This document shows, in pieces, positions 21,295-50,965 of a stretch of 64,000 bases of DNA. The notes under the pieces are model-generated. The model was not told the DNA's origin. It saw only the letters and a program-made list of their open reading frames with translations, and did no database searches. A program made the position numbers and the translations under genes. Source of the stretch: Pelagomonas calceolata (Eukaryota); NCBI GenBank assembly GCA_918797485.1, contig CAKKNE010000006.1, forward strand, positions 2,914,001 through 2,978,000, read 5' to 3'. Position 1 is the stretch's first letter. The number at the start of each line of letters is the position of its first letter.

Positions 21295-22560
21295 CTACTC
21301 GCCGAGGTCGAGCTCGGCCCAGGGCTCCTTCGAGTAGCAGTACAATAACGCCGCGTCCTTGAGCCGGTCGAGCGCGCCGTGCGTCGCCAAGCTATGGACG
21401 CAGTCGCTCTTGTTCGATGTTTCGCGGTCGTAGGCAAGCCGCGCCGCGGCATGGTCCCCATCTTCCAAACCCGACGCGGCCTCCGACGCGGGCACGAAGA
21501 CCGGCGCGCCGTTCTGGTCCCGGTACAAGCCCACCAGGTTCTTGTCCGCGTCGTAGGCCGGGAAGCCGAGGACCGCGCCGTCGCGCACCGGGCGAAACTT
21601 CTTCGCGAGCACCGTCCTCACTTGGGACTCGACCTCGCGGCTCTGGGCCGTCTCCGTGAACGGCGGCAAGGGCACGTCCTCCCCATGGCCGGAGCCGTCG
21701 CCGGCGGGACCGCCCGTGTAGACCGAGGACACGCCCCGCTGTAACACGGGCGGCGCCATGCTTCCAGCGCCGGCCAGCGCGTGGAGCGCGCTCTGGCCCT
21801 CGGCCTCGTCCAAGATTGCCAGCGTCATCCCCGCCGACGTGCGCATGCGGCTCATAGAGGGTGCTTGCATCGGCGGGACGCTCCGCGGCTTCTTCCTCTT
21901 TTGGTTTTCTCCTAATAAAGGTGCGATGTCCTTCTCGTACTTTCTTTGTAGTGTATCGATGATGGCGTTGGGGTTGCGCATCTGGTAGTCTACGCCCGAG
22001 ACCCTCCAGCGCATTTCATCTAACGAAGACACAGCCTCCTGGATCCACTCCGCCACCGACGACGGCAGGCCATCCTCCGAGACTTGCGGTAGAGGTGCCC
22101 TAGTACGAGGAGGAGAGGTAGACGCCCGGCGCCGCTTGTTCCTCTTCGACCTAACATGCACCTTCTGCGTTCTCACACTTTCGATGCCCTCCTCGTCACA
22201 CGACACCTCCACACAAAAACACTGGCCCTGGTGGTTCTTCGACACGTCCTCCACTCGAGCCTTCACGGTCAACAACCCGCCCTTCAGTGACAAGCCCCGT
22301 TTCCTACCATCTTCCGTCCAGACCCGCAGGATCGACTGGTTCTCGACGATTTTGCCCGTGTCGGCGTAGCGCAGCGCGCACTTTACTTTCACATCTTTTT
22401 TCACCTTCTTGCCCGTGCTGTCATTTAGTGAAAGCTTCAGTAATATACATTTGTGCTGGCCCCCTTCGTCCTTGTACCAGACGGCGGCGCCCTGCTTTTT
22501 GGATTCCGCCGCGTCGTGCTCGAGGATGCCGCCCTGCTCGATGGCCAGCTGGAGGGCCAT
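21295..22560 (-). CDS. Putative DNA-binding protein, CudA/p53-fold-like
   Basis: VWYKDEGG...ARVEDVSKNHQGQCFCVEV...VHVRSKRNKRRR with a basic NLS; family resemblance recognised by eye only; ATG at 22560. Confidence 0.5.
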   Translation of the reverse strand: MALQLAIEQGGILEHDAAESKKQGAAVWYKDEGGQHKCILLKLSLNDSTGKKVKKDVKVKCALRYADTGKIVENQSILRVWTEDGRKRGLSLKGGLLTVKARVEDVSKNHQGQCFCVEVSCDEEGIESVRTQKVHVRSKRNKRRRASTSPPRTRAPLPQVSEDGLPSSVAEWIQEAVSSLDEMRWRVSGVDYQMRNPNAIIDTLQRKYEKDIAPLLGENQKRKKPRSVPPMQAPSMSRMRTSAGMTLAILDEAEGQSALHALAGAGSMAPPVLQRGVSSVYTGGPAGDGSGHGEDVPLPPFTETAQSREVESQVRTVLAKKFRPVRDGAVLGFPAYDADKNLVGLYRDQNGAPVFVPASEAASGLEDGDHAAARLAYDRETSNKSDCVHSLATHGALDRLKDAALLYCYSKEPWAELDLGE

Positions 22561-22810
22561 GGGGGCAGCCTGTTTTTTTTTGGCTGTCCAGGAAATTTCT
22601 AAGCATGTACTTTGGCGTGGGGTGGTGCTTTCTATAGAGATTTTTAAGGGGTGCTGTGAGACACCCTGGGAGCGGTTGGCCGGGTGCATCTATCGGCATG
22701 GGACGGGTTTTCCCTCAAACCCGTACGCATGGCTGTGTATGTAAAGCGGCCGCTGCGCGACACGCATCGATCGAGGCACAACGACTAACCGGCTTCGCGG
22801 CACTCCTGCG

Positions 22811-23569: not shown

Positions 23570-26500
23570 TTACTGAATTGCGCAAGTGGAACTGCCTGAT
23601 GTCGGCCCAGATGATAAAGATAGTTCGGCGAGGTGCTTTTGGCACTTCTTTGTCATACGATTGCCGGTGCGCGTATATATCGGGAGAGCACGTTCTAGGA
23701 GCTCGCGTTTCTTGGCGTTGTCGCCGAGGTTGCCATGGGCTATGCCGAGATTGAACAGCGTGCTGGCCACTTGCGCGTGGTCGCGGCCGTACTTGCGCTC
23801 CTTGATCGCGAGCGCGCGCTCTAGCACGTCTCGCTTCTTCGCGTGGTCGCCTAAGTCGCCGTACGCGATCCCGAGGTTCGTCAGCGTGCTGGCCACTTGC
23901 GCGTGGTCGCGGCCGTACTTGCGCTCCTTGATCGCGAGCGCGCGCTCCAGCACGTCTCGCTTCTTCGCGTGGTCGCCCAAGTCGCCGTACGCGTTCCCGA
24001 GGTTATTCAGCGTGCTGGCCACTTGCGCGTGGTCGCGGCCGTACTTGCGCTCCTTGATCGCGAGCGCGCGCTCCAGCACGTCTCGCTTCTTCGCGTGGTC
24101 GCCCAAGTCGCCGTACGCGTTCCCGAGGTTATTCAGCGTGCTGGCCACTTGCGCGTGGTCGCGGCCGTACTTGCGCTCCTTGATCGCGAGCGCGCGCTCC
24201 AGCACGTCTCGCTTGTTCGCGTGGTCGCCCAAGTCGCCGTACGCGTTCCCGAGGTTATTCAGCGTGCTGGCCACTTGCGCGTGGTCGCGGCCGTACTTGC
24301 GCTCCTTGATCGAAAGCGCGCGCTCCAGCACCTCTCGCGCCTTTGCGTGGTCGCCTAATTTACTGTATGCGTCCCCGAGGTTCGTCAGCGTGCTGGCCAC
24401 TTCCGGATGGTCGCGGCCGTACGCCCGCTCCTCGATCGCGAGCGCGCGCTCCAGCATGTCTCGCTTCTTCGCGTAGTCGCCCAAGGCGCCGTACGCGTTC
24501 CCGAGGTTCCCCAGCGTGATAGCCACTTCCGGATGGTCGCGGCCGTACGCCCGCTCCTTGATCGCGAGCGCGCGCTCCAGCACGTCGCGCTGCTTCGCGT
24601 AGTCGCCTAACCTGCCGTACGCGTTCCCGAGGTTATCCAGCGTGGCGGCCACTTGCGCGTGGTCGCGGCCGTACGCCCGCTCCTTGATCGCGAGCGCACG
24701 CTCCAGCATGTCTCGTTTCTTCGCCTGGTCGCCTAAGGCGCCGTACGCGTTCCCGAGGTTATTCAGCGTGCCGGCCACTTTCGGGTGGTCGCGGCCGTGC
24801 GCCCGCTCCTTGATCGCGAGCGCGCGCTCCAGCACGTCTCTACTCTTCGCGTGGTCGCCTAAGTCGCCGTACGCGAGCCCGAGGTTGTTCAGCGTGATGG
24901 CCACTTGCGCGTGGTCGCGGCCGTACGCCCGCTCCTTGATCGCGAGCGCGCGCTCCAGCATGTCTCGTTTCTTCGCGTTGTCGCCTAAGGCGCCGTACGC
25001 GTTCCCGAGGTTCCCCAGCGTGCCGGCTACATTCACGTGGTCGCGGCCGTAGGTCCGCTCGTCGATCGCGAGCGCGCGCTCCAGCATGTCGCGCTTCTTC
25101 GCGTGGTCGCCTAAGTCGCCGTACGCGCACCCGAGGTTCGACAGCGTGAGGGCCACGCTCGCGTGGTCGCGGCCGTACGCCCGCTCCTTGATCGCGAGCG
25201 CGCGCTCCAGCATGTCTCGCTTCTTCGCGTGGTCGCCTAAGTCGCCGTACGCGCACCCGAGGTTCGTCAGCGTGGGGGCCACGCTCGGGTGGTCGCGGCC
25301 GTACGCCTGCTCCTCGATCGCGAGCGCGCGCTCATAAATGGCTCGTGCCTTGGCAGGTTCGCCGAGAGAGTTGTACGCGCTCCCGAGGTTCGTCAGCGTG
25401 GTGGCCACCTGCACGTGGTCGCGGCCGTACGCCCGCTCCTTGATCGCGAGCGCGCGCTCCAGCACGTCTCGCTCCTTCGCGTGGTCGCCCAAGTCGCCGT
25501 ACGCGCTCCCGAGGTTCGTCAGCGTGGTGGCCACCTGCACGTGGTCGCGGCCGTACGCCCGCTCCTTGATCGCGAGCGCGCGTTCCTGTATGTCTCGTGC
25601 CTTGGCGTGGTCGCCTAGGTCGGCGTACGCGTTCCCGAGGTTCCCCAGCGCCACGCCCGTCTCCTTGCTCTCCGCACCAAACGCGCGCTCCCTCTCCGCT
25701 AGGATAGCCTCCCGGACCTTCACGACGCCCGCAGATTCCTGTATCGACTCGAGCAGATCGCAGAGCCCCTCGAGCAAACTCGCGTCCGCGTCGGACCCGA
25801 GCACGTGGTCCACCAACTCCTCCACATCGTTCGCCTCGTCAACTGGAAGCTTGCACAGCATCTCGAGCCGCTGCGCGACGGCGTCTGAATTTCCCAAGAA
25901 AAACGACCGGAAATACTCGTAGACCGTGTGGCTCTGGTGCAGCGCTTCCGACTCTTTGATCGGCATGAGGTGAATTTGCAGCTCGCACATGTGCGACACG
26001 TTCTCGACTTTCACGGCGACGTTCATCAAAATATCCTGATAGCCGTTGAAGAGCGGCGGCGCGAACCGGTTCTTCGTCCGCACGATATCCACGCGGTCGT
26101 CGGCCTCCAGCGCCTTGTACAAACTGACGAGGGCGTCCTCCGTTTGACAGAGGGCCGCCCCGCGCGTAATGTCGAAGAGCCACGAGTAGCACGGCGCGGT
26201 CTTGTCCGCGTACTCGTCGCGCGCCTTAGCGCCGGCGCGGTCGCGTCCTTTCAGCGGCGCGAACATCAGCTTTACACCGCTTTCAGGGCACGCGGCCGTC
26301 ATAATTTCCTCGAACTGCACCCTCGCCAGCACGGCGACCTCGTACAGCGCGTCGAGCGACGCGGCCGGCTTGCCGTCGAGGCCGCACTGCCGACACTCGT
26401 CTCCTAAATTCTTGCCCACCCAGGGGATCTTCTTCACATCACCCTTGATGTGCACGCGCGCGATCTCGTCGATTTGTTCACGCGCTGCTTTGAAGGCCTT

Positions 26501-26722
26501 CAGGTTGTGAAACATGCATTTCCGCGGGTCGAGCGCGCGTTCGTCGTGCTCCTTGGCGTGGGCCTCGATGGTAGGCCAGGCAGCCACGCGCGTCCCATCG
26601 GGGCCCTCGGTCGCGGCGGCATCAAAGGCTTTCTTCTTCTCCGCGTCGTACAGCACGCCGATTTCATTCTTGATGGCTACCTCGGACAGTGGTGCGCCCT
26701 CCGTCGACACGCCAGCACCCAT
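23570..26722 (-). CDS. RelA/SpoT-like nucleotidyltransferase fused to 16 42-aa TPRs; N-myristoylation and CaaX motifs
   Basis: MGAGVS start; APLKGRDRAGAK...DITRG...VRTKNRF...NGYQDILMNV...CELQIHL; TPR array; ends CAIQ-stop. Confidence 0.8.
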   Translation of the reverse strand: MGAGVSTEGAPLSEVAIKNEIGVLYDAEKKKAFDAAATEGPDGTRVAAWPTIEAHAKEHDERALDPRKCMFHNLKAFKAAREQIDEIARVHIKGDVKKIPWVGKNLGDECRQCGLDGKPAASLDALYEVAVLARVQFEEIMTAACPESGVKLMFAPLKGRDRAGAKARDEYADKTAPCYSWLFDITRGAALCQTEDALVSLYKALEADDRVDIVRTKNRFAPPLFNGYQDILMNVAVKVENVSHMCELQIHLMPIKESEALHQSHTVYEYFRSFFLGNSDAVAQRLEMLCKLPVDEANDVEELVDHVLGSDADASLLEGLCDLLESIQESAGVVKVREAILAERERAFGAESKETGVALGNLGNAYADLGDHAKARDIQERALAIKERAYGRDHVQVATTLTNLGSAYGDLGDHAKERDVLERALAIKERAYGRDHVQVATTLTNLGSAYNSLGEPAKARAIYERALAIEEQAYGRDHPSVAPTLTNLGCAYGDLGDHAKKRDMLERALAIKERAYGRDHASVALTLSNLGCAYGDLGDHAKKRDMLERALAIDERTYGRDHVNVAGTLGNLGNAYGALGDNAKKRDMLERALAIKERAYGRDHAQVAITLNNLGLAYGDLGDHAKSRDVLERALAIKERAHGRDHPKVAGTLNNLGNAYGALGDQAKKRDMLERALAIKERAYGRDHAQVAATLDNLGNAYGRLGDYAKQRDVLERALAIKERAYGRDHPEVAITLGNLGNAYGALGDYAKKRDMLERALAIEERAYGRDHPEVASTLTNLGDAYSKLGDHAKAREVLERALSIKERKYGRDHAQVASTLNNLGNAYGDLGDHANKRDVLERALAIKERKYGRDHAQVASTLNNLGNAYGDLGDHAKKRDVLERALAIKERKYGRDHAQVASTLNNLGNAYGDLGDHAKKRDVLERALAIKERKYGRDHAQVASTLTNLGIAYGDLGDHAKKRDVLERALAIKERKYGRDHAQVASTLFNLGIAHGNLGDNAKKRELLERALPIYTRTGNRMTKKCQKHLAELSLSSGPTSGSSTCAIQ
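23648..25663 (-). repeat. Coding tandem array of 16 x 126-nt TPR units
   Basis: Unit approximately QVAxTLxNLGxAYGDLGDHAKKRDVLERALAIKERxYGRDHA; units 12-15 are nearly identical at DNA level. Confidence 0.95.
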
Positions 26723-31132: not shown

Positions 31133-33364
31133 TCACCACCCGTTCGCCGCGTGGTGCCGCAGCATGCGGTCGAAGGCCGACCGCGCCTCGTGCACAGTAT
31201 ACTCCTGGAGCGGGTCGCGGCAGTAGCGGCGCTGGAGGTCGACGCGCAGCGGCCCCGAGCGCCCGCCCGGCCCCGTGGCCGTGCGTATCAATTGCGACGT
31301 CGTGTCGAGGAAGTTCGCGAACACCGTGTGCAGGATCGCCTCGACGTTTAAGGACGGGTTCCACGACCCGGGCGATCCGGAAGTTGTCAAAGCTTCGATG
31401 CAGATGGCCCCGCCGGCGGTCACGTGGCCCGTGTACCAGCAGAAGCGCGGCGAGACGCAGCGCAGGAAGAACGGCCGCGTCGGGTAATCCGAGGGAAACG
31501 TGATCTCCATGCGGATCGGAACGCGCAGCTGCGCCAGGTCTCCGTTGAGATCACGGCCAGCCGGGCAGTCACCGTCGAAGTCCGCGACGGAAAAGCGCCA
31601 CGTAGTCGCCGCGTCGCCGACGAGTTCCAGATCATGAACGCGCGGGGCCGACGCCCACTTCCGCAACGACTGGAACTCGCTCATGATGCGAGGAACCCCG
31701 GTCTTGCCCAGCCACTTCGGCGGCGCGCCCGGGGGACCTTGAGTCCGCTGGGCCTTCGCGGGCGGCAGCTCCGGCGGCGGGGGCGGCTCCGTTCGCGGCG
31801 CGGGCGTCACGGGCCGCCGCGCACTTTTCAAGGCGTCGACGCGCGCCCGGACTTCCCGATCAAACGCCGGCGCGAGCGTGTTCTCGCCAGCCGCGTCGCG
31901 CGCCTGCAGGGCCTCCCCCCGATACACGAACAGGAACCGCGTCGCGACCGCGTCCTCGTCGGGGACCACCCAGATGTTGGCACTCTTGGTAATTCCAGGA
32001 ACTTCAGCCACCTCGCACAACGCAATAATCCTCAGGTCCGGCGACCCGAAGAAGGAATCGTTGAACTGCGGCGTCTCGGGTTCCGGAGCCGCGGCGCCGG
32101 CGCGTCCCGGAAGCGCGCCGCGGTGCTGGCGCCGGGCGGACATGGCGTAGCGAATAGAATACGACAGAGACGTCGAGACATACACGCCAGCCCCGTGCGC
32201 GGCGCCGTGGAGCTGCAATTTCGTGCCCGACGCCGACCGCAGGCCGGATCGCAAGATACAATGCCAATTTTCGGCCGGCGAGCCGTGCCACGCGAACTTG
32301 CTGCCGTGCCGCGCCTTCAAAGCCGCGAACCTAGCTTGCCTCGCCGGCGGCTGGCTCAACATAATAAACTGGCGGCACGTTGCTTCCGGCGCGATGCGCT
32401 CGAGCAACCGCATATTCGGCGGCAGCGCAACCAAATGAGCCTTGTTCGACGTCATGATCCAGCGCAGGGCCGCCGGCGCTTGCTTATCGACCTTGAGCAA
32501 AGCGCCCTCCACCGCCGCGAAGCCGGCGGCCGACTGGCCGTCGTTCCGCGCCGTCTCGTGGATGCGCTCGAAGGACGGGAAGCGGTCCAAAATCTTCGCC
32601 GCGGCGGCCGCGCCGACGCTCGTGCCGTCGAGGACGCAGGGCGGCTGCAGGATGTCCGCCGCGCGCCGCGACCGCGCGGCGAGCCGAGTCGTCGCGACGA
32701 GCAGGTCGAGGACGTCGGCGCGGGCCGCGAGGCACGTCGCGCCGACGAGCAGCTTCCCAAAGGTCTCGAGCTGGTGGGCACACAGGGGCCGCCCGCATAC
32801 CGACGGCAGGATCGAGGCTTCTCCGAACGCTAGAGGGGCATCACATATTGCACAGACGTCCGCTAAGGAGCCCATTCTCTGATTTGCGTAGGCGAGCGTT
32901 GCGTAAAGCAAGCCCTCGGTATCTCGTTGTCGTTTGTGCAGGGGCGAGCGCCAAAAAGCCTCCAGCAGCCGTTCGACCTGCCGCCCGACGATGCAGCCTT
33001 CGGGGGCCGTGACTGTGATGCCAGCGTCGCAGTAGCCGGACGCGTACTGCGTCGCGCCACCCGAGAACACGAGCTTTGCGGAGAGCGGCGCGGTCAATCC
33101 CCAAGCTTGCCGTGTCTCCGCCGAGGCTTGCGACCGCGTCGGATCAATTTTGAGGGTCACGATGAGCGTCCGGCTCCCCTTCGTCGTCGACCGCTCCGCG
33201 CTCTCGTCGCCGAAGCGCGCGCAACACCGGGCGACGTCGACGTCGAGCTGGTCGCCGGCGTCGGCTACCGGGTCGGTCGACGCTTCGGATTCGTACGCGT
33301 AGTCATCTTCGGACTCCTCTGCTTCGTCATCGCTGGCGCTGCGGAGGTCCTCGACGTCGGCCAT
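31133..33364 (-). CDS. PARP6/8-like mono-ADP-ribosyltransferase fused to a UBE2Q-like ubiquitin-conjugating domain
   Basis: CAICD...PSVCGRPLC zinc motif; FAWHGSPAENWHCILRSGL...HGAAHGAGVYVS and IWVVPDEDAVATRFLFVY; C-terminal FPSDYPTRPFFLRCVSPR...GHVTAGGAICIEALT. Confidence 0.88.
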   Translation of the reverse strand: MADVEDLRSASDDEAEESEDDYAYESEASTDPVADAGDQLDVDVARCCARFGDESAERSTTKGSRTLIVTLKIDPTRSQASAETRQAWGLTAPLSAKLVFSGGATQYASGYCDAGITVTAPEGCIVGRQVERLLEAFWRSPLHKRQRDTEGLLYATLAYANQRMGSLADVCAICDAPLAFGEASILPSVCGRPLCAHQLETFGKLLVGATCLAARADVLDLLVATTRLAARSRRAADILQPPCVLDGTSVGAAAAAKILDRFPSFERIHETARNDGQSAAGFAAVEGALLKVDKQAPAALRWIMTSNKAHLVALPPNMRLLERIAPEATCRQFIMLSQPPARQARFAALKARHGSKFAWHGSPAENWHCILRSGLRSASGTKLQLHGAAHGAGVYVSTSLSYSIRYAMSARRQHRGALPGRAGAAAPEPETPQFNDSFFGSPDLRIIALCEVAEVPGITKSANIWVVPDEDAVATRFLFVYRGEALQARDAAGENTLAPAFDREVRARVDALKSARRPVTPAPRTEPPPPPELPPAKAQRTQGPPGAPPKWLGKTGVPRIMSEFQSLRKWASAPRVHDLELVGDAATTWRFSVADFDGDCPAGRDLNGDLAQLRVPIRMEITFPSDYPTRPFFLRCVSPRFCWYTGHVTAGGAICIEALTTSGSPGSWNPSLNVEAILHTVFANFLDTTSQLIRTATGPGGRSGPLRVDLQRRYCRDPLQEYTVHEARSAFDRMLRHHAANGW

Positions 33365-34394: not shown

Positions 34395-37300
34395 TTACTC
34401 GACGGCTGGCCGGGGCGGCGTCGTGCCGGGTTCCGCGTACCTTTGGCGTCTAGCCGCCTCCATTTGGCGCGCGCGTGACGGGGCCGGCGGCGGCGAAGCC
34501 GCGAGGCTTGCAGCGCGGCGCCGCTCCTCGGCCGCCGCGGTGAGGCGCGACGCCGCGAGCGCCCGATTTTCGTCGTTGCTCGCCTGGTCCGCCCGGACGT
34601 GCCGGACGATATCCGTGAATGTCGGCCGCGTCGCGGCGTCGTTCGCCCACGCCCGGCGCATGACGGTGGCGAGCGGTCCGGGCATCGCCGGCGGCACTGG
34701 CGGGCGCGCGTGCTCGAACACGACCTTGAAGCTAATTTGGAGCGGCTTGTGGCCCGCCCAGGGCACGCCTCCGTCGAAAAGTTCCCACAGCACCATGGCG
34801 TACGAGTAGACGTCGCTCTTCTCCGTGAACACGTTATCCTTGAGGAGCTCGGGAGCCATGAAAGACGGTGTCCCTGAGAGCCCGTCGCCGTTCTTTGTGG
34901 TCAGCGTCGTCGCCGTCTTGAGCGCGTCGCAGCGGCTGAGCCCAAAATCCGACACTTTTGCCCTCGCTTCCTTGGTCAGGAGGCAGTTGTGGCTCTTCAG
35001 GTCTCGATGCTGCACGCCGCACGAGTACAGGAATTGCATGCCCTGCGCGACATCTGCGGCCCAGAGGCACTTCAGATCGGCCCCCACCTCCGCTGTCCCG
35101 TCGAGTGCCTCACGGATGGATCCACCGGGCATGAATTCCATGACGAGGCCGAGGAACGAAGAGTCCGTCGTGACGACGCCCAGCACCGCAACCGTCCGCG
35201 GCGAGCGGAGACGGATCATGATCGAAAGCTCCTGCGCGAACTGGGAGATCATTTGCTGGCGCTTAACCGCGGTCAGCGACGCCAGCGATATCTTCTTGAG
35301 GGCCACGGCCTCGCCCATGTACTCGCCTTGATACACGTCGCCTTGCGCGCCGCACGCCACCGGCTCTGCCGCGACGCGGTCGAGCGTCAGCTCGTGGCTG
35401 ACCAGGTTGGTTCGTTTGAGAGAGCGAGCCGACTCCTTCCGCGTCTTTTTCGCCATCGACGCGCCGAGAGCAGCGACCTCTTCCTTGATGCTGTCGAGCC
35501 TGGCGCCGTCGCGTTGCACTCTCGCCTCGACGGCGTTGATGCGCCGCTCGCCGCTCTGTGCGGCGGCCACGATGAATTTCTCGTTGCGTCGCGCCCCGGC
35601 CTGGACCGCAGCCAAAAGCGTCGCGTCTCGCCGCGTGCTCGACGCGACTGCCCCCGAGACATAGTCGAGCTGCGCAGTGGTGCGTTGCGCCCTCGCTTCT
35701 GCAGCGACTAGCAGCTCCTCGTCACGACGCGCGCTCGCGCGGACGGCCGCGAGTATCGTGGCGAGCTGCTGTTCGTTGCTCCGATCTCGTAGCATTTTCT
35801 TCAGTTGCTTGTCCACTTTGGCGAAGCCCTCCCTGACTTCGAGTCGGAACTCGCCGAGCTCGCTCGTCAATTCGTCGACCGGCACGTGGGCTTCTATGGC
35901 GACGGACGTGATCGCGACGGGATCCTCCGCGAGGCTCCGCGCCGCAGCTTCCGCGGTTTCGCCGGTCTCGCGAACGCGCGCCTTGACGAGCTGGTCGATA
36001 GAACGCTCGATCTGGTACGTGTGTTCCATGAGTCGCGCGTCCGCCGCGAGGCGGTATAAATCGCGAAACGAGTCCATGGCCTGACAGATCTCCTTGTCGA
36101 GGCGGCCCAGCGACCTGACGTGGCCTTGCATCGTGAAGGCGCGCTTGAGCCAGCCCTTCTTCCCAAACGTTCGCATTGCATCGTTGAACTCGACGAGCAG
36201 ATTCACGAGGTGTCGCATCTTCGACTCGACGAGCGCCCTCTCGTCCTCGAGGCGGGCGACATTCTTCGCCATCAAGTGGGCCGCGTCGAGCACGTCGCAG
36301 ACGCGCTTCGCCGCAATCAGGACGTCATCCGCCATGTCGCCGAACTCCACCGCCGAACCGAGGCAGCCTTTGACGGCCCTGCAGAGCTCCCCGACGAGAG
36401 GGAGACCGCTACCCGCGGAGAGCAGGGCGTTCGCGAGCGTGAGGCCGTGCTGCACGACCGTCGACGTGTCCTTGTGACGGGCGAGCATCGCGGAGCGGCC
36501 ATCGCCTGACTCGTCCCCGAGCTCCACGTCGACGCCACTGCGGGTCATCTGTTTCGTATTGGACCCTTTGCTGCGGCGGTAGAAGAAAAATGCAGCCGCG
36601 GCCAGCAGCAGCACGGCGCCCGCGGCGGCACCGCCACCGGCGACCATCACGCTGTTGTCTTTTCTGCCGCCGGAGCTCTCTGCTGTCTCGGTTGTAGCGA
36701 GCGCGCTGGCGAACGTGGGGCGCGGCGTCGGTGCGGAGACGGTCTTGACCGTGGGGTTGCCGGGTGTCGCCGTCGGGGCAGTTGTCGGGTGTAACGATGG
36801 TCGAGGCACCGGCATCGGCGTCGGCGCGCCGTCGACCGCGGTCGCTGCCATGATCGTGTCGTAGTCATTCGCGGCCGCCGGCGCCGTTGGCCCCACGGCG
36901 CCCTCGGCGTCGGCCGCGGTGGCAAGCGCCGTGTACAAGGCGCCGCTCTGGGCCGCGGTCGACAGATCGCTGACGACCGCCTCGGCGTAGCCCGTTGCCA
37001 TCTCCGCGCTGCCCTCGACGCGAACGGAAAACACTACCGTGGTCGTGGTCTGCTGCAGGCGCCGTCGTCGCGACGATACGACGCTAAACGCCACAATTTG
37101 GTCGGTGCTCGTGACGTAGGAGAGCGTCGCGACGAGCGCAGTCTTGACGATGGTCTCGAGCGTCGTGGCATCCACGGTCACTTCCGCAAGGACCAGCTGA
37201 GAATTAATCACGACTGACTCCGCCGTCGGCGACAGCGCCGGTGTGGCCGTTGGTACCGGATTCAAGAACTCACCGGAGGTCGGCGCCGGCGCCGGCTGAG

Positions 37301-38591
37301 ATGTTGGCGCATTTGCATCGAAGACGTAGGCCGCGCCCGAGCCGCTGCTGTAGTATTGTTCGGCCCCGACCACGATGGTGGTGCCGTCAATCGCCACGGA
37401 GAAGCCGAAGCCGAAGCCGTCGTCCGCCGCGGCGTCGGAAGCCGTCAGCTTGGCCACCTGGTCGTACGTGGCGCCGCCGTCGCTCGTGCGGTAGACGTAG
37501 GCCGCGCCCGAGCCGTCGTTGTAATATTGGTGGGCCCCAATCACGATGGTGTCACCGTCAATCGCCACGGAGCGGCCGAAGTAGTCGTACGCCGCAGCGT
37601 CGCTGGCCGTCAGCTTGGCCAGTTCGACGTACGTGGCGCCGCCGTCGGTTGTGCGGAAGACGTAGGCCGAGCCCGAGCTGGTGCCGGCGTCGTCGTCTTG
37701 CCGGGCCCCGACCACGACGGTGCCGCCGTCGATTGCCACGGAGTAGCCGAAGTTGTCGTACGCCGCAGCGTCGGAGGCCGTCAGCTTGATCTTCGTGTGC
37801 GTGATCCAGCCGTCGGTCGTGCGGAAGACGTAGACCGCGCCCGATCGGCCGGTGTGATATTGGTAGGCCCCGACCACGATGGTGTCACCGTTAATGGCCA
37901 CGGAAATGCCGAAGTAGTCGTCCTCCGCGGCATCGCTAGCCGTCAGCTTGGCCAGTTCGACGTACGTGGCGCCGCCGTCGCTCGTGAGGAAGACGTAGGC
38001 CGAACCCGGGCCATTCCATTCATAGGCTCCGACCACAATAGTGCCGCCGTCGATCGCCACGGAGTAGCCGAACTGGTCACTCTCCGCGGCGTCGGAGGCC
38101 GTCAGCTTGGCCACCTGAGCGTACGTGGCGCCGCCGTCGGTCGTGCGGAAGACGTAGGCTGCGCCCGAGCCTGTACCGTCGTCGTCGTCGTAGGGGGCTC
38201 CAATCACGATTGTGTCGCCGGAAATTGCCACGGACCAGCCGAACTGGTCACTCTCCGCGGCGTCGGAGGCCGTCAGCTTGGCCACCAGGCCGTACGTGAC
38301 GCCGCCGTCGCTCGTGCGGAAGACGTAGGCTGCGCCCGGGCCGCTGTTGTAGTACTGGTGGGCCCCAATCACGATGGTGTCACCGTCAATCGCCACGGAG
38401 CGGCCGAAGTGGTCGTCCGCCGCGGCGTCGCTGGCCACGAGCTTCGCGACCTCCCCGAAGTTGGTGGACAGCCGCCGATCAGCCCGCGCGACGAGCGGTG
38501 CTGTGAGGAGTGGCCCATTGCTAGGCTCAAGAACGCGCAGCCCGTGATGAGTGTGCAAGCTTACCAGCAGGCATAACTGGTAGCATCTCAT
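34395..38591 (-). CDS. Receptor-like kinase: signal peptide, 7 FG-GAP repeats, P/T-rich stalk, TM, MLKL-NTD-like helical bundle, coiled coil, TKL kinase
   Basis: Seven KL(T/V)ASDAA..D.FG.SVAI.G.T(I/V)V.GA units; TM ...AVLLLAAAAFFFY followed by RRSK; kinase VALKK, HRDLKSHN, SDFGLS, GTPSFMAPE and SDVYSYAMVLWE. Confidence 0.88.
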   Translation of the reverse strand: MRCYQLCLLVSLHTHHGLRVLEPSNGPLLTAPLVARADRRLSTNFGEVAKLVASDAAADDHFGRSVAIDGDTIVIGAHQYYNSGPGAAYVFRTSDGGVTYGLVAKLTASDAAESDQFGWSVAISGDTIVIGAPYDDDDGTGSGAAYVFRTTDGGATYAQVAKLTASDAAESDQFGYSVAIDGGTIVVGAYEWNGPGSAYVFLTSDGGATYVELAKLTASDAAEDDYFGISVAINGDTIVVGAYQYHTGRSGAVYVFRTTDGWITHTKIKLTASDAAAYDNFGYSVAIDGGTVVVGARQDDDAGTSSGSAYVFRTTDGGATYVELAKLTASDAAAYDYFGRSVAIDGDTIVIGAHQYYNDGSGAAYVYRTSDGGATYDQVAKLTASDAAADDGFGFGFSVAIDGTTIVVGAEQYYSSGSGAAYVFDANAPTSQPAPAPTSGEFLNPVPTATPALSPTAESVVINSQLVLAEVTVDATTLETIVKTALVATLSYVTSTDQIVAFSVVSSRRRRLQQTTTTVVFSVRVEGSAEMATGYAEAVVSDLSTAAQSGALYTALATAADAEGAVGPTAPAAANDYDTIMAATAVDGAPTPMPVPRPSLHPTTAPTATPGNPTVKTVSAPTPRPTFASALATTETAESSGGRKDNSVMVAGGGAAAGAVLLLAAAAFFFYRRSKGSNTKQMTRSGVDVELGDESGDGRSAMLARHKDTSTVVQHGLTLANALLSAGSGLPLVGELCRAVKGCLGSAVEFGDMADDVLIAAKRVCDVLDAAHLMAKNVARLEDERALVESKMRHLVNLLVEFNDAMRTFGKKGWLKRAFTMQGHVRSLGRLDKEICQAMDSFRDLYRLAADARLMEHTYQIERSIDQLVKARVRETGETAEAAARSLAEDPVAITSVAIEAHVPVDELTSELGEFRLEVREGFAKVDKQLKKMLRDRSNEQQLATILAAVRASARRDEELLVAAEARAQRTTAQLDYVSGAVASSTRRDATLLAAVQAGARRNEKFIVAAAQSGERRINAVEARVQRDGARLDSIKEEVAALGASMAKKTRKESARSLKRTNLVSHELTLDRVAAEPVACGAQGDVYQGEYMGEAVALKKISLASLTAVKRQQMISQFAQELSIMIRLRSPRTVAVLGVVTTDSSFLGLVMEFMPGGSIREALDGTAEVGADLKCLWAADVAQGMQFLYSCGVQHRDLKSHNCLLTKEARAKVSDFGLSRCDALKTATTLTTKNGDGLSGTPSFMAPELLKDNVFTEKSDVYSYAMVLWELFDGGVPWAGHKPLQISFKVVFEHARPPVPPAMPGPLATVMRRAWANDAATRPTFTDIVRHVRADQASNDENRALAASRLTAAAEERRRAASLAASPPPAPSRARQMEAARRQRYAEPGTTPPRPAVE

Positions 38592-38798: not shown

Positions 38799-41700
38799 TC
38801 ACACCCACAGCGTCAGCCCGCACCAGTGCCGCCCCAGCGACGCCGGGTCCGTCGCGAGGTCGACGAGGACCCTGACCTGGTCCTCGACACTCAACGTCGC
38901 CTGGTGGCGCAAGGCGTGGCGGGCGCTGTTCTCCAAGCCGGCGACGACGGTCCGCGCGCGCTGGGCCATGTCCGCCTCGAGCATCGGGTTCCCCGCGACC
39001 TCGCGGCTCAATAAGTGGCAGGGGTTCGCCCCGAAGAGTTTCCCGCGCGCCGTCGCGACGCGCCGCTCGGGCGCCGCCGCGGCGCCCGCCTCGACGTCGT
39101 CCGCGTCCCTATCTAAAGACGCGTCGTGCTTCGCGCCCCGTAACCAGTCGAGCACGGGCTCCCGCACGAACGCCTCCAACAAGCCGAGGAGAGGCGCCCG
39201 CGCCCGCGGCTGCCGCAGCGTCCTGAATGTAGACTCGAGATGAGACGTGAGGACGCGCCGCGCGCCCACGGGCTCGAGGGGCGCTTCCAACTCCCGCGTC
39301 AACCGGAACGGAATCAACTCCGGCACGGGCAGCAGCGCCCCCGTCCCAAACGAGTAGCCCAGATCGATGTGCACGAGCGCGCCGTCGCCACTTAATAGGA
39401 AGTTGTCCAAATGGCGGTCGCCCAGACCAACAACATAACCGGCAGCACACGTCGCCGCCAGGGAATACGCGTAGGTCCGCCGCTTCGCGAGGAACGCCTC
39501 CGATGAGACAGACAGCTTTTCCAGATGGCGTTTCAAACCACCAGACGTCGCGTCGAGCACCTTGCGCGCGGCGAAGAGAGCTTGAGATGCTTCTTGCGGC
39601 TTGGCCCTTAGTCTCTTCTTCGTGAACGCCTTCGACGCCTTGTCCGGGGCTCCTAATAACATATCATCCCTTGAACGCTGCGCCCGGATCCACAAAGCCT
39701 CGCCCTTCGTGCTGTCGCCCATTCCAAATTCTCTGAGTAATATAGACTTGACGGGCGGCGACGCGGGCACCCATTCCACCAAACCAACCCTAGGAGATAA
39801 CGGCGCGACGGCGTACGTCCGCAGTGCCGCACCAACACCGCGGCAAGACCCTTTCAGAGTGGTAGAGATGGCCTCGAACAAAGCCTCGACGCGGGCGTCG
39901 TTCCGCAGATCTTCCCCACCTTTGACGAGGAAATTTAATCTGCGGGCGTCGGTCGCGTGCACCGACAATTTTTTAGGAACCTGTTTCGATGGTAAAATGT
40001 CCAAAGACGGCTCGAAGCCCGCTACGACACCACCGGGCACCTCTAACAACGACCGGGCGCCGTCGAAGTCGCGCAGCCAGCCCGAGTACCTGTCGAGGGG
40101 ACACGTCGGCCTCACGGACTTCTTTGGTTGTTTTGCTAGATCTTGTCTTAGACCGTCCAAGCCTTTCGCTAGCTTCGTGTGGTCGTCCGTCGAGAACAAA
40201 GCGTCGGCCTTCTTCCTCAAAGATCTCACAAATGCTTCCCGAACAAACGCTTCGTTCCTGGAACCGATGCCCGTACCCACGAGAGGCCACTCGTCACCCA
40301 GCGTCGTCTTCTTGAGTCTAGACCAGGCCGCCCGCGCTCTTACCAAATCACCATTCCGAGCGGCCTTGCGCGCCACATCTAAACCTTCCGCGAGGCGTTT
40401 CTCGGGCTCGTGCAGCCCCTCGCACGCCAGCACGAACGCCTCCGCAATATCATCTCTACAAGCGTCGCGGGCCGCTCTTATGAGCGTCGCGTCCGTCAAT
40501 TTCTCGGAAGCGAAGCGCAGCGCGTCCCTTACTGACGATGGAGAAGAGCGCGCCAAGCGCTCGACGACGGGCCTTACGGCTTCGCAGATCGCTTTGGCTC
40601 TCGCATCGTTCGAATCACCATAAGCTGATAATAACGCGACGAGCTGGTCGCCGTGGTCTTTGAAGGAGGCGGAAGGCGCGTCCTCCGCGGCCGCCCGGAA
40701 CGCCGCGGCGCAAGCTTCGGCGTGAGGACTTCCCAACAAAGCGAGCACTCTCGGAATGGCTCTTGAAGCGTAGGACGCATCTAGCGCCGTCGCTCTGATA
40801 TAAGTCTCGACAGCAGACGCGGCGCACCGTTGCGTCGCCGTCGACGCGCTGCCGCCACCTGCTAGTTTAGCCAGGTCGCACACGACCTCCTTGGCCTGGC
40901 GCCGTCGTTTCGTCGGCTGGTCCTCATCCTCCTCATCCTTGGAAAGGCGGTCTCGGCGCAGCATCTCGTCGCACAAATCCGCAAAGGCGAAAAACGCCTC
41001 CGCGCTCGACACTTGAATCGCCGCAGTTCTCAGGTCGTGGGCCGCATTGTTCGCTAATTCTACGGGTGTCGCATCGCCCTCGGAACACTTCCCCGCATAA
41101 CGGGCGTCGGCCCACTCCAGCGCCAACGCGCCTCGCCTCACTAGATTCCGTTCCACTTTATAAGCCACGGCGAAGACCTTGTCGCATTTCTCGGGCTCGT
41201 TGCTCGCACAGTAATCCCTAGCTAGAGCTAACGTGTAGTCGGCCTTGAGCTGGTCGGCGCCTTGCGGGGCGGTACTGAAGAAGGCATTTTTGCGGAGACA
41301 CTGCGTCGCCACGTCTGTTATTGATGCATTCAGTGCTAAGGACGCGATATCCAGCCTTGTCAAATCTAAAACGGCCTCTAACGCTTGGTCGCTTTGGGCT
41401 AGTACTTTTCGCGTACATAACGACGCGACCCAGGAACTACAGGGCGCGTCCGCGGGCGGCTTGGGTGACGTGCGCCACCTTTCTCCAGCACCGCTGGATG
41501 GGGGCCGCGCGACGGCGTCGACGTCACCCAATATGCTTAAATCGGCGACGCACTTCGCCAATGCAGTACCTTGCGACAGGGACGCCAGCGCCTCCGCTAC
41601 TTGTTCAAAACCAGCGTCGACGGCCTCCGCCGCGCCCGCACGATCACCATCTCGTAGTAAACGTATAGCTACTGAAGCGGGCGCCTTCCTCAGCAATTCG

Positions 41701-44700
41701 GCCCGCGTCTCAGGCTTTTTGAGCTGCACCCTTAGTTTTTCCTCGACGTCGTCGTCGTCAATTAACGCACCGGCGAGAGCCAACGAACCCGGATCACTCG
41801 CCATTCGAGCCACGTCGTCCCACTCGCCTAAAGCTTTCGCCGCGTCGAGCTGCCGCTCCTTGTCATCCTCAAAAGCGGCAAACGCTTCTCTTAAACGCCC
41901 CGCCCGCAACAGTGACGCGCCCTCATTATCGTCCAGTGACGCGTTGATGTCCTCGTCGACCTTCGCGTAGAGTGACGCTAAAGCGCTTTTTGTAGGCGTA
42001 TCTAGCGGCAGGGCTCTCGCTTTGCGCGCCCAGGGCCCTTTCGTCGAGGAACCTGTGAGTGCACACAAGCGGGCCTTTTCGATCGTCAGAACGCCCGGTT
42101 CCAACGCGTTCGACGCTAACGCCGTTGAAGCTATTGATGTAGAGGGCACTAAGACCGCAGGGTCTTCACTTTTCTCTGATGCATCGATGCAGGCAGCATG
42201 GGCTTGATGGAGAGCGCTCCCTAATTCATGAGTGGGACTCTCCTCGCACGACCGCAAAGCGTTCTCCAGACCCACGACGACTCGTCGACGCGTAGCCAGC
42301 GGTCTAGCGTTGTAAAGTGTCCCAACGAGCTGCCCGAACAGCGACGCCGCTATTGATCCATCCCGTAACGACAAGGCCATCAATGGCCGGACCACCTCCG
42401 CCAACGACAGCCCCACGTTGGGCAACTCGCCCTGGGCATACGACCGGTACATGACGACCTTCTGCCGCGCTGGTTTCTTCTTTTTTGATACAGTATCTTC
42501 CGCAAACCGCACCGTACGTGCTGCAAGCCTACGCGACAGCTGGGCCTCGTCTTCTAGCACGTCGCCCGTCGTCTTCGGAGGGACGACATGGTCAGCAGCG
42601 AACAACAACTGCGTCTGCAGGCGCACTTGCCTTCCCTGGGCCCTTGGATCATCTTCGTCGACCTGAGTCGCATCGTATAAAGAATCTTTCTGTGTGGCCT
42701 TCACGGGACCAGAACCGAACATTTGGGTCGATAACGAGCTACACCGTTGGGACTTGGCGTTCTCCACGACGGAAAAGGCGTTTACGAGCGAGGACCCTTT
42801 CCCTTCGAGGTCCAGCTGCAGGTCGCAGCCCTTGTCGCCGCCCAGATCGTCACAGAGCGGCTGGTTCCAACTCGGGGAAGATGATGATGAAGCTAATAAC
42901 AAAAATGCGGCGAATCTATGGGGCCTCGCATCGGGCGCGATGAACATCTCCCCGAGAGCACCATCCAGCCTCGACTGCGCCGTCTCACCTAAACGACTAC
43001 GCCAGTAGTCGTAGACCCTTCTACGAACGCCCTTCCTCTGTTCCACCACTTGTTCTTTCTCCGCGTCCACGTCGATAACTTCCGGTGGTGGCGGCGGGTT
43101 CGGATCTCGCTCGAGCATGACCACGTCCTCGTCCGGCGTCTCTTGGACCGGTGGAGGCGGCTCTTCCTCCTCCACAACAGCTTCGTCCTTGGGCGCGTCG
43201 AGCATGCCCTCGCCGTCTTGATCTCCTAGACCTCTGATTAACGCTGCTCGCACTCGTAATGCCGTGGGATTCTCATTTTTCGAGTGTGAAGTAGGAAAGT
43301 AGACGTCGTGCAATGCTGCTAGGAGATCGTAGCCCAACGATCTTACCTGCACGTCTGGTGATGCCGCAAGTAGAGCTTCGAGCGACGCGGGCCCGCCGTG
43401 GACCACTGAAGCCACTAACTGCTCGTTCCTAGACAAAGCTTCACTTCTACTCACGAGCAATTGCAAAGCTCCGAGCTGCACTAATGGTTTGGCGGTCTTC
43501 GTATCTTCCTGAGAATCATCATCAAGAGGCAGCTCCGGCGTCACGCGTTCACTATTGGCCAAGGCCTTCGGCAAGATGCCTTCGAGCTGCTGCAGCAACT
43601 CGTCGTCGGAAGAAAAGCATTCGGAAGACACACCGCCCACGTCCAGCGCCCGCAGCAGCTCGAACGCTTGTTTTGCCGACTTGCCCTCGTGCACTATTTC
43701 ATTTAAACTCCTACAACTTCGTAAAGCGTGGCGCCGCGACAGGAACGTAGGCACGGCCAACGTACACCTCGACACGAGCGACGCGAAGCGCCCGTGGCGG
43801 TGGTGCGAGCCCGCTTTACTTGTATCTGTGACGTCTTCTACGGTGTCCTTGCACTTGCGTAGCAGCGCATCGAGCGACGTCGCTTTCAGAGCTGCGGCGA
43901 GGACCTCGCCGGCGGCCTTGTATAACGTGGCGTGCCTTACTTTGGCGCACTCTACCACGAGTTCTAAAGTCTTGGGCGCCTCTGGGAGTAGATTCGGTCT
44001 TAAGGTTAGTATGGCGTTGACGAGGGACAATCCAGCTAATCGAGGCACCAGGTTCTTGGCCAACAGAGTTTTAGATCCACCTAGATCTTTGGGCGGCGTC
44101 AGGAGCTTGTTGATCGGTCGGCTCCAGTCGAAAAGTTCCCCATCGAACAATGTTGTGGAGTAGGCTGTGAGTAGAGCGTTGCACAAGGCTAGGTTCCGCT
44201 TTGTTGTGTCCTTATTACTACCAGGGTTCGTCGGGCCTCTATCAGTAAAGTGGGGGTCGTTTTCTTTGGAGTAGGACACATTTGCACAAAGCGTCTCCGC
44301 GATCCTTGCGATGGCTGGCGCTTCCTCTTCTGTAATGGGTGGCGCGTTCCGCTTGTCCGGTGACGTACATACGAGGAAGCGGCACGCGCTTCGTAGCAAA
44401 TGATCAATACCTTGAGTTGGTTCGGCACATAACGCTCGAGCGGTCGCTTGCGCGACAGACTTTCGTAAACACATGGCGTGCGTCCTTAAAGCTCGTCTTA
44501 AGCCACCTTTGCTCTCGACGAAGACGTTCAACACCAAGGCGAGCAAATAGATACAAGTGTCGCCTTCCGACCGATCCAAATGAGACGCTAATACTTCCGC
44601 GGACTTAGGTGTAGAGTGTTCCTTGCGCCGTACCGACGCTGGACTTGCACCTGTGGCCTTGGCGGCGTTCCTAGCGTCCACCAATGCTTTGGCCTCCAGT

Positions 44701-47700
44701 CGGGCCAATTTAGCAAGACCAGCAACTAACGGAGCCATCAGAGCCGTGCGATTGAGGGGATGCGCCACGATCTCGATGGCCTCCTCGTGATCATCGTCAT
44801 CTGAATCGTCCGTGTCCTCCTCGAGCAAGGCCGGATCCCCCGCGTCGACGTCCCACAAGGAAGCTTCTACCGGAGGCACGGCCTCGACGTCCTCCAAATC
44901 TTCTTCTTCCTCTCTAGTAGAGAAGGCGTCCTCCTCCTCGTGATCATCGATTTGCGACGCCTCCAAGCCTAATGAAGAGTGCCGCAGCATGGTCCTCGCG
45001 AATTGAGATAATCCCGCGTCTTCGTCTTCACAATTTTTTTCGACCACGTTCGCTCTCATACAACCGATGCGGTCGCGTCGCATGCTTAATTTACGTTGAT
45101 GACCTCGTGCCGTCGTCATGCTCTCGAAGCCGCAGCCCACGGTCAAGGTGATAGCGTCTGGCTGGAGAGCTAATAGTAACGTCTCTTGCCGCTCCGGAGC
45201 CAGCACGATCTTGTTTAGATGGAGCGGGTTGTCCTGCGACGCCTCGGCTAACACTACCGCTAGCCTATAAGCACTCTTCACGACTCTGGGCGAGACGTCA
45301 GTAGTACTTTTTAGTTTCGAGACCCAAAGGCGCAAAACGCGCTTCCGCAGGGCCTTCGCGTCTTGCCCATAAGCGCTTAGTACTGAAGAAGAAGCGTCGT
45401 CCATGACGCAGTCCTCGAGACCACCTCGTGACAACCCAGGAAGCGCGTCGAAGGCCTGTTCCAAGATGCATGCTGCAGTTTCACCAGTCGCGACCTCTAC
45501 TTGAGAAGCATTCGTCTCTAACGACTTCTCGAGCGCCGTCAAGGCCAAGGACACGACGGGTCTTGATGAAATACCATCGTTACTATCTCTGATACTTTTA
45601 AGGAAGACGCTTAGCGTACGGCCGTCGAAGCGTTTTAGTGACGGCACTAAGCCGTACTCACAGATGAAGCGGCAGACGTCGGGCCACTGCTTCGATTTAC
45701 GATTCAATGAGTTTTGTGGAGCCTTCTTCCCGAGCAGCCCGCAGTGCGCCGCTAAATCGTCTAGAAAAGCTACTGATGACTCTTGGTCGTGATCATATGA
45801 AGACTGTGCAGAACCGACGGCCGCCGCCCGCAACCCTCTCCTGATTGATCTACCGAGCGTGTCCTTGAGAGCCGGGATTCTCCTCGAGAGTAGAGCTAGC
45901 AGTCGCGGCGCGCCGCAGGACCCGTAGGCCGCGCCCAACGCCGAGGCGTCGTTCCGGGCGCGGCTTTTACTAGGTTCATCAAATTCGTTCGAGGCCCAGT
46001 CTTCAAAGCGAGCGGGTAGGGTCCTCGCCAGGCGCGCGTCTAAAGCTTTGAGGACCTCCGCGTCGTCCTCTATACAAATTTCATCGTCTTCCTCAAAGGC
46101 GTCGGTCTCGTCGCCGTCGTTCGTCCGTTTACGTCTACCGGGGGCGTTCCTCGTCAGCCCTCCGACGAAGTGCGGCACTAATCGAATGGCCTTGTCGGCC
46201 GCGGCGTCGTCGTTACTTGCTAGAGCGTCTACGACACAGGTCCGCGCTTGGTTCCGCGCCTCCAGTCGCTTCTGTCTCCCTCGAAAGCCAGCACCCAACA
46301 ATCTTGTAGCCAGGCCTAGTTTCTGCGACGTCGGCCACGCATCCGCATTTACGGTGAGTAGAGGCGCCGCGAGGGCCGCTCGACTAATCCCTCTAGTTCG
46401 CGCCCAGTCGCCACAGGCGACGACGAAGGGCGCCTGTCCCGCGCGACATAGCTTTTCAGCAGTATCAGACCAATCTTCGGATAATGTACCCGTACCATTG
46501 CACACGAGCGCCTCATACACCGCCTCGGGATGCCGGTCGCACGCCTCACCGGTCTTCAAATCTTTGATGACCAGAGGGAGCAAGCCCGGCGCTTCCGGTT
46601 CACCCAACAACGGCAGACCCATGGCTACGGCCAATCTCAGAGCGCCGTCGTCCTCGTCGTCGTCGTCGTCGAGACCCTCGAAGAAGTTCCTCGCGAGGAG
46701 TCGTGCAATATCTTCTGACGGTGCCGCTTGGTCGAGAGCATCTGTTTTGTGGAGAGCGTCGTACAACCTCAACGCGCCGTCCCGCCTCCGTTGCGCCGCT
46801 CGCGACGGTGTCGACAGTCGCGCCTCCTCGGTGTCTTCTCGGGACGACGAATGCGTCGGCTCCGAGCCTTCGGAGTCTACGGACCAGTGCGGCGCCAAGG
46901 CTTGGAGTGACGTGGCGATGGCCTTCCTTGTTAAATGTATCGGACACCTTTTCAGCAGTTTCGCGACTGATAGCGGTAACTGTGTACGTACCTCGACGTC
47001 GTCCTGCGACGACGGCAAGGCGCCTCGCCGATCCGGTGATACAATAGCATCCACGAAGATGCGTAACAGGTCGTAGAGGCCCGACTGTGCTACTATATCT
47101 TCGTCGAGTTGTGAGGCGAGGTCGCAGGAGTGTCTCAGAGCGTCCCTCCTCAAGATGCGCCGTCGTTCTTCACACACCTCGTCGTCGTCGTCGATCATGG
47201 CACTCCCTCGCTGCCTTGAACCGACATGTTGTACTAATTGTATAGAAATAGCAAGGGCGTCCGCCGCCCACGCCCCATCGATCACTTCAGCCTTAAGGAA
47301 GGACCCGACGGCGTGCACGCAAGCGACGGCCTTCGCTAATGATTCCGAGTCGTCGCAGTCGACTGGGGTTTGAGGCCAGAGCACTTTTTTCGCACTCGGA
47401 GCGTCGGGCAGCTTCTGCCGGTAAAAGGAACCGAGGTCGCCACTTACGAGCGGCGCCAACTTAGCGAGCGTGTACCACGTCCTCCTTCTACAAGCGTCGT
47501 CGGGGTGGGCCGCGCTCGCCATGAGCTCGTCGCATAGAACGCCTATCGAGGCCGGAGGCGCCCTATTGCCAACGGTAGCATCCATTAACTTCGCGTCGTC
47601 CCGCTTTCTCGCAACATGATGTCTAATACCTTCCGCGAGGCGATCCGCCGCCGCGGACGCCGCGCGCGTGGCTGCCGCGCCGGGTCCACCCGAAGAAGAC

Positions 47701-50700: not shown

Positions 50701-50965
50701 CTTTGAGGACAGTCGTCCGCGGCGTTTCGAGGATCTTGAAGCTCTTCGACACGGCCAGCCAGCGGCACAGGTCCGGCGGGTGCTCATTTTTGAACAGTCG
50801 TGCCCGCGCTAATGTGACTTCGACGTTTTCGACGTTCAGACACTCCTCGACCTCCTTCACTAATCTAGAAGGCGCGACGGCGAAGGCCGGCTCGGCGCCG
50901 TCCGGCGCCTCCTGGAGCGGGCGGTGGAGCTCCCAGAGCGCCGCGTCTAATCGGGCCGCGGCCAT
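38799..50965 (-). CDS. PRKDC: DNA-dependent protein kinase catalytic subunit (PIKK); exons 50965-49242 and 49152-38799 (~4025 aa)
   Basis: VVMYRSYAQGELP, SKQVPKK, FLVKGGEDLRNDARVE, GLGDRHLDN, LPVPELIPFRLTR and FATC-like VDLATDPASLGRHWCGLTLWV; length typical of DNA-PKcs. Confidence 0.9.
49153..49241 (-). mobile_element. Decayed introner-like intron (89 nt, GT-AG) in PRKDC
   Basis: Joins the two ORFs in frame (EMR-PKNEF); 3' end CCACACAG matches the TIR; 5' part CAGCGTGAAAAATGAA weakly resembles the TIR. Confidence 0.7.

Follow-up and report, generated by a model that had tools for sequence, protein, structure and literature searches.

The window analysed here is a 64,000-nucleotide (64-kb) stretch of the Pelagomonas calceolata genome (assembly GCA_918797485.1, contig CAKKNE010000006.1, positions 2,914,001 to 2,978,000). 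On its minus strand, at 23570..26722, lies a transcribed, single-exon gene for a protein of 1050 amino acids, in which a synthetase domain of the RelA/SpoT homologue (RSH) class precedes a long array of tetratricopeptide repeats (TPRs). Reading from the N-terminus, and throughout on the minus strand, the protein comprises the hexapeptide MGAGVS, a predicted N-myristoylation motif kept across the family (residues 1-6; 26705..26722); a helical domain, well folded in our model and without a family match (residues 7-111; 26390..26704); the RSH synthetase (SYNTH) domain, of RelV/EAS-Apk1 type, EAS denoting the exported synthetases (residues 112-290; 25853..26389); a helical linker without NACHT or NB-ARC (residues 291-347; 25682..25852); 16 repeats of 42 residues of the kinesin-light-chain type, with a fixed scaffold and variable positions (residues 348-1019; 23666..25681); and a capping segment with a Ser/Gly tail, which ends in CAIQ and is private to this copy (23573..23665; CaaX at 23573-23584). 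An earlier description made from the letters alone, here called the sequence-only reading, had listed MGAGVS, the synthetase motifs, 16 TPRs and CAIQ, and all of these were located in the 1050-residue open reading frame (ORF): K158..R162-A..K166, D184-x-x-R187-G, KNRF from 217, NGYQD from 226, ELQIH from 247 and CAIQ at 1047-1050. The key residues of the SYNTH domain are K158, R162, K166, D184, R187, Y228, E247, Q249 and H265.

An in-frame stop lies three codons 5' of the ATG and no 19-residue stretch within the first 40 residues exceeds a hydropathy of 0.42, so the gene product has neither a presequence nor a signal peptide, in keeping with the absence of plastid targeting claimed earlier. 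Minus-strand polyA reads from four runs of one culture sample cover the whole ORF at a mean depth of 4-61, with no splice joint within it. Over the N-terminal domain many reads differ in their letters, as transcripts of paralogues would. Contigs of three of four other runs agree with the 3' end and its CAIQ (0, 0 and 1 differences); for the fourth run, a metagenome, none of the pieces listed reaches that end. The count of 16 repeats rests on the assembly, as repeats 12-14 are all but indistinguishable (99-100% identity) and none of the records listed runs across the array. Only one copy of the gene occurs within the window. At position 25970, one DNA run yields 10 contigs with a different letter at a summed depth of 7991, versus 546 for the window letter, which hints at ten or more close copies of the gene and is not a count.

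The Pfam RelA_SpoT match is weak when taken alone (E 0.015-0.06), a phmmer search of the PDB with the SYNTH domain returned only chance matches, and NCBIfam, PADLOC and PHROGs hold no family for it. A model of residues 1-350 built from a 105-row alignment reached a predicted local distance difference test (pLDDT) score of 93.8; a single-sequence fold (pLDDT 37.5) was set aside. In a Foldseek comparison of the model with the PDB, all 25 rows shown were RSH synthetases, and in an exhaustive VIA comparison with 48,161 chains the first 11 ranks were RSH entries, led by RelP at Z 14.3 (root-mean-square deviation 2.8, 142 aligned), with CapRel at 12.9, Tas1 at 12.4 (3.1, 157 aligned) and SaEAS at 10.1; the best non-RSH fold scored 7.0 and FaRel2 5.4. 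A profile search of the PDB matched RelP, Tas1 and RelQ. The Rel/Spo synthetase fold put forward in the sequence-only reading is thereby upheld, and so is the alignment of its catalytic Asp and Glu, because D184 and E247 fall on the Mg ligands of RelP.

Based on the profile alignment, D184 and Y228 occupy the positions of D107 and Y151 in Staphylococcus aureus RelP, and E247 that of the EIQ glutamate in Bacillus subtilis RelP; as described for RelP, D107 and E174 are the Mg ligands and Y151 binds guanosine (PMC5794853). Tas1 is collinear with the domain over KxxxRAxxK and DxxR, in a Syn1-Syn2 layout (E 4.7e-5). R187 and E247 correspond to Apk1 R330 and E382, with the Apk1 numbering taken from an offset of 21 given by four matching residues and the glutamate linked via a phage protein; these two residues and the ATP-contacting N370 are those named for Apk1 in PMC12691689. 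In a family alignment of 149 rows, 32 of them close relatives, all nine key residues are kept in 129 of the 144 rows that cover all nine positions, and the Mg ligands D184 and E247 in 146/149 and 145/149. With the Mg-binding Asp and Glu, the ATP-binding Lys and Arg and the G-loop Tyr all present, this is an active-looking RSH domain whose predicted active site is intact, as judged from model and alignment. The helical domain in front of it (residues 7-111) is common to close relatives and well predicted; residues 1-110 gave no Pfam or Atlas lead, the VIA search having barely covered this part, and the domain is a candidate autoinhibitory or membrane-binding module.

The sequence-only reading drew a parallel with RelA/SpoT; the profile scores and trees place the nearest kin elsewhere. 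On fetched loci, the family profile gave 77-104 bits for RelV-like proteins, 88-102 for phage proteins and 46 for one other bacterial protein, compared with 15 for a canonical-type small alarmone synthetase (SAS) and 6-9 for RelA/SpoT. Run on 401 genomes from the phylum of a Vibrio genome, it matched 11, ten of them via open frames of 257-268 amino acids (E 1e-20 to 1e-28); frames of the size of RelA or SpoT all fell short of 1e-5 in the 401. The Vibrio and Photobacterium matches are called RelV/VpEAS by exclusion, as the third RSH beside RelA and SpoT at about 257 amino acids, and not by alignment with the characterised proteins. In a 57-row tree, 33 family rows, called eukaryotic by architecture with only a few of them named, form one group (97/94), and family, RelV-like and phage rows together split from canonical RSH (98/96; 94 in a 26-row tree); neither tree includes Tas1 or plastid RSH. 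By sequence, then, the closest kin are the RelV/exported-synthetase and Apk1/Tas1 toxin branch, and not RelA/SpoT or plastid RSH.

Within this branch, the closest sequence kin found were RelV and VpEAS of Vibrionaceae, cluster B as described in PMC12691689 (hhalign probability 99.1%, 29% identity over 156 columns), which share the motifs KxxxRAxxK, DxxR, KNRF..P...GYRD and ExQxH with the algal domain. They are single-domain proteins with a signal-peptide-like start, whereas in the algal protein the start is MGxxxS and both an additional N-terminal domain and the TPR array are present. The Syn1-Syn2 layout is shared with Apk1/Tas1, but the PAAR or MuF delivery domain of those toxins is missing and the acceptor loop is unlike that of Tas1. 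Motifs and profile and tree affinity thus place the domain with Apk1, EAS and RelV, while an export signal or delivery domain is absent. The best phage match follows a portal gene and precedes a small ORF and a synthetase/hydrolase gene, like the Apk2 loci described in PMC10083569. This locus, in Bordetella phage PHB04 (L002:2341-6351), comprises the portal gene, an unannotated synthetase-domain gene, the small ORF and a gene annotated as synthetase/hydrolase, an Apk2-like layout of toxin and immunity with relatives in other viral contigs. Separately, a Photobacterium locus (L001:4800-6632) holds a tandem pair of RelV-like genes, one protein (P0126) has two RelV-related synthetase domains in tandem and is sister to RelV in the tree, and many RelV-like proteins are misnamed phosphoribosylglycinamide formyltransferase.

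The product cannot be read from kinship, since enzymes that make (p)ppApp, (p)ppGpp or a mixture all occur in the branch, every one of them reported as toxic in the cytoplasm (Ahmad et al. 2025, PMC12691689). The acceptor loop, KNRF..P..xGY[RQ]D, resembles that of RelV and differs from that of Tas1, which makes guanosine a somewhat better guess for the acceptor than adenosine or mixed use. The argument that a Tas1-like enzyme should make (p)ppApp is weakened, the motifs being common to RelV-type guanylate enzymes. The idea that a Glu before the conserved His sets guanine specificity was also dropped, as it found no support in the sources consulted and the canonical SAS L030 has Thr there. At that position the family has Ser in 129/149 rows and RelV-like proteins have Glu in 118/119.

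At E 0.001 the full search gave 1177 cluster representatives, and at 1e-10 it gave 463; the best 150 of the 1177 were examined, and the tail may hold bacterial or linker-only matches. The closest named relatives are five Aureococcus anophagefferens proteins (53-61% identity). Named members come from this pelagophyte and from the diatom Cylindrotheca closterium (2 of 30 looked up), and the Atlas points to diatom-rich clusters. TPRs occur in 56 of 60 longer relatives scanned, and some relatives add COR, MSP, C1, FYVE, PUB, LNR or EF-hand domains, among the families listed at five per protein. Existing annotation recognises members as nothing more than TPR, kinesin light chain or nephrocystin-3 proteins, and the family has motifs of its own, H.CE.Q.H and H..YE.FR..F. 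Only 57 helical residues separate SYNTH from the repeats, with no NACHT or NB-ARC among them; a Walker A motif was found in 0/31 close and 2/116 distant proteins. HD hydrolase, TGS/ACT, EF-hand and presequence are likewise lacking from the Pelagomonas protein, with no Pfam match and no room in the domain map. As far as sequence can tell, this is a large, multi-copy family, mostly TPR-fused and without a nucleotide-binding oligomerization domain (NOD) of the NOD-like receptor (NLR) type; the question of paralogues left by the sequence-only reading is answered by many of them. Some paralogues (L056:5261-8581, P0011, P0026, P0023) carry ankyrin, SPRY or SAP-like modules around the repeats, a modular swapping, and a close relative, P0024, has a second, divergent synthetase-like domain after its TPR array (residues 864-1016; E 3e-14 to the family profile).

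The proposal of lipid anchors at both ends stands for the N-terminus only. An MGxxx[S/T]-type start, MGxxxS being the N-myristoylation consensus, occurs in 27/30 close relatives (24 at residue 1) and in 10/94 distant ones, versus 16/1477 internal Met. The motif is a family trait, and myristoylation and a cytosol-facing membrane location are predicted from it. A CaaX ending was found in 0/32 close and 2/116 distant proteins, many of them fragments (background 14/2503), and the L050 copy at the corresponding locus, described below, lacks it. It is therefore ruled out as a family anchor; in the Pelagomonas copy it is genuine and could be used.

The locus in L050 has the same neighbour genes as the window gene and allows the parts of the protein to be compared. 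The SYNTH domains have a ratio of non-synonymous to synonymous substitution (dN/dS) of 0.053, with five flanking genes higher at 0.07-0.34; the enzyme domain is under strong purifying selection. The N-terminal domain is 90.5% identical in DNA, and position-matched repeats 1-4 only 64-71%. The repeats keep an exact 42-residue period (Pfam TPR_10 gives 16 stretches), and among solved structures it is the TPRs of kinesin light chain that their profile matches. Their number at the same locus is 16 here versus 6 in L050, and thirty close relatives have 4-8 (median 6). The repeat array has thus been replaced and resized at one locus. Within the gene the scaffold is fixed and repeat positions 7, 10, 13, 17, 21, 25 and 28 vary; five variable positions, chosen on this gene, show a proportion of non-synonymous differences (pN) of 0.59 versus 0.25 elsewhere in 49 repeats of eight other loci. 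Broken copies also occur, with L063 frameshifted, which may be an assembly error, and L065 interrupted. The flanks of L053:3284-5137 and L065:5056-6750 are 77-93% identical and their synthetase genes 68%, indicating either divergent alleles or paralogue replacement; the L065 copy has about 0.8 kb of non-coding sequence before its last repeat remnant.

A non-plastid RelA_SpoT domain on an immune-type receptor is already known in eukaryotes from fungal NLRs (Dyrka et al. 2014, PMC4986451), where, as here, the RSH domain precedes a repeat sensor. As described there, repeats of fungal NLRs are near-identical, polymorphic in number and variable at concave-face sites modelled on kinesin light chain. 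The fungal proteins listed in that source are RelA_SpoT-NACHT-WD40, whereas the algal protein has no NOD. According to a later survey, available as a preprint, no cluster matched RelA_SpoT with enough coverage, and a 2023 review describes the role of these heads as poorly documented (PMC10197012). The NB-ARC-TPR defence candidates of Ectocarpus, a stramenopile, have shuffled 42-residue (126-nt) TPR units and gene birth and death (Zambounis et al., PMC3341825), but they have NB-ARC in place of the synthetase and, as reported, repeats as separate exons, whereas the algal gene here is intronless. The repeat array here evolves in the manner of those in fungal and Ectocarpus NLR candidates, for whose variable TPRs the same traits are reported. 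With respect to NLRs and other signal transduction ATPases with numerous domains (STAND), the algal protein has the repeat sensor of high internal identity and varying number and lacks the central NACHT or NB-ARC. The plastid RSH1-4 of plants and algae have the SYNTH fold in common with it but are long HD and SYNTH proteins thought to be plastid-targeted, and the green-algal TPR-fused RSH4 is placed in that long family in PMC6881373. Two diatoms have synthetase-only proteins that Atkinson et al. (2011, PMC3153485) left unplaced, and the same study lists a divergent hydrolase for Aureococcus; further related literature includes PMC10107265, PMC10802352 and PMC7159879. No paper on the algal SYNTH-TPR family was found in the literature searched, which is not proof of novelty as most subscription papers lie outside it, and six eukaryote names had no match in six supplements of the EAS survey (PMC12691689). 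A NOD-less architecture of SYNTH and repeat sensor is apparently undescribed so far.

The explanation that we favour, at about even odds, is that the protein, a synthetase of the bacterial exported/toxin branch fused to a fast-reshuffled TPR array, works as a membrane-tethered immune-type switch. A defence sensor-enzyme switch best fits the conserved catalytic residues, the potentially lethal enzyme class, the membrane tether, the lack of a NOD and the volatile binding array. At rest, flanking domains of the same protein would hold the enzyme off, and binding of a non-self ligand in the TPR groove would release it. The released enzyme might then convert GTP/GDP (or ATP/ADP) into (p)ppGpp or (p)ppApp with pyrophosphate from ATP, and fast transfer could drain the nucleotide pool and so arrest or kill the infected cell. 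Gating, ligand and product are what we infer for the synthetase-TPR protein. More tentatively, stramenopile algae may have taken over an alarmone-toxin domain of bacteria and expanded it into a large family of membrane-anchored immune receptors without a NOD, whose reshuffled TPRs would recognise proteins of giant viruses or parasites and set off suicidal production of (p)ppGpp or (p)ppApp in the cytosol; we consider this fuller account possible, though the odds are against it.

Several observations weigh against the favoured explanation. The order of algal, RelV and phage rows is undecided in the 26-row tree (p-AU 0.65 for algal with RelV; support 49 for RelV with phage), and structure scores favour Tas1 no more than RelP. 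Leu232 stands at the position of the ATP-contacting N370 of Apk1, where the family has Leu in 70/149 rows and Asn in 56/149, and Phe replaces the G-loop Tyr in 44/149. At variable sites in the independent repeats pN/pS is 0.97, near saturation, so that diversification is established and positive selection is not; within the gene the ratio is 1.32 and circular. The placing of the variable positions along the TPR groove is deduced from helical spacing and the fungal precedent. TPR arrays also serve non-immune binding, and a word-based scan of IMG/VR gave five pattern matches, none confirmed, and no viral relative.

The likeliest alternative is a non-immune cytosolic enzyme whose low (p)ppGpp output would act as a second messenger in nutrient or stress signalling, with the TPRs binding host partners. 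The gene is expressed in all four runs of the culture sample, relatives carry EF-hand, C1, FYVE and PUB, and the nearest bacterial kin are RelV-like guanylate enzymes, of which Shewanella RelV is reported in a preprint to give stress tolerance. However, a stable partner predicts a stable array, yet the repeats were replaced and resized at one locus, and the family is multi-copy with broken members; we hold this alternative to be unlikely. Somewhat less probable is a defence switch with an RNA acceptor, like CapRel/FaRel2, that would pyrophosphorylate RNA 3' ends (tRNA or viral RNA) and block translation. CapRel scores level with Tas1 in the VIA comparison, and the family departs from RelV before the conserved His (Ser versus Glu) and has motifs of its own, but the PDB profile search finds neither CapRel nor FaRel2, FaRel2 ranks low in structure, and the sequence kin are nucleotide-acceptor enzymes. 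It is improbable that the protein acts as an outward effector, the alga delivering protein or alarmone to bacteria or prey, as proposed for the fungal RelA_SpoT-NLRs, for which Dyrka et al. suggest manipulation of bacteria (PMC4986451). Its bacterial relatives are exported enzymes, but the protein lacks both a signal peptide and any hydrophobic segment, and its conserved MGxxxS start speaks for the cytosolic face. A pseudo-enzyme that binds nucleotide without catalysis is very improbable: Leu232 and Leu157, the latter at the site of an Arg in long RSH enzymes, would suit it, but Tas1 is likewise hydrophobic before the lysine, RelV-like proteins vary at position 232, and the Mg ligands are kept throughout nearly the whole alignment.

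Little is settled about the ways in which abundant marine algae sense and stop viruses, or about whether eukaryotes make alarmones outside plastids. If the fuller account given above is right, the family would be a eukaryotic counterpart of the CapRel-type fused sensor-toxins and would give cytosolic alarmones in algae their first defined source and role. The family combines a predicted intact active site with a simple assay and with sensors that vary naturally from member to member, and through it the Apk1/EAS toxin branch, for which surveys have so far covered bacteria, reaches into the genomes of eukaryotes.

In the window, the synthetase gene is neighboured by genes for a UDP-sugar pyrophosphorylase-like protein and an ESCRT-II protein, with no adjoining immunity gene among them. 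Other minus-strand features include a ubiquitin-conjugating domain fused to a PARP catalytic domain (31133-33364), a kinase domain in an FG-GAP repeat protein (34395-38591) and a second FG-GAP-like repeat ORF, judged by eye (52810-54180). A DNA-PKcs-like gene of 3250 amino acids (38799-48551) has upstream of it an ORF without a Pfam match that may be a further exon (49235-50965). Lastly, a strongly expressed minus-strand gene without a Pfam match (21295-22689) shows loose read ends at 21311, 21340, 21914 and 21990, pointing to a paralogue or a divergent allele.

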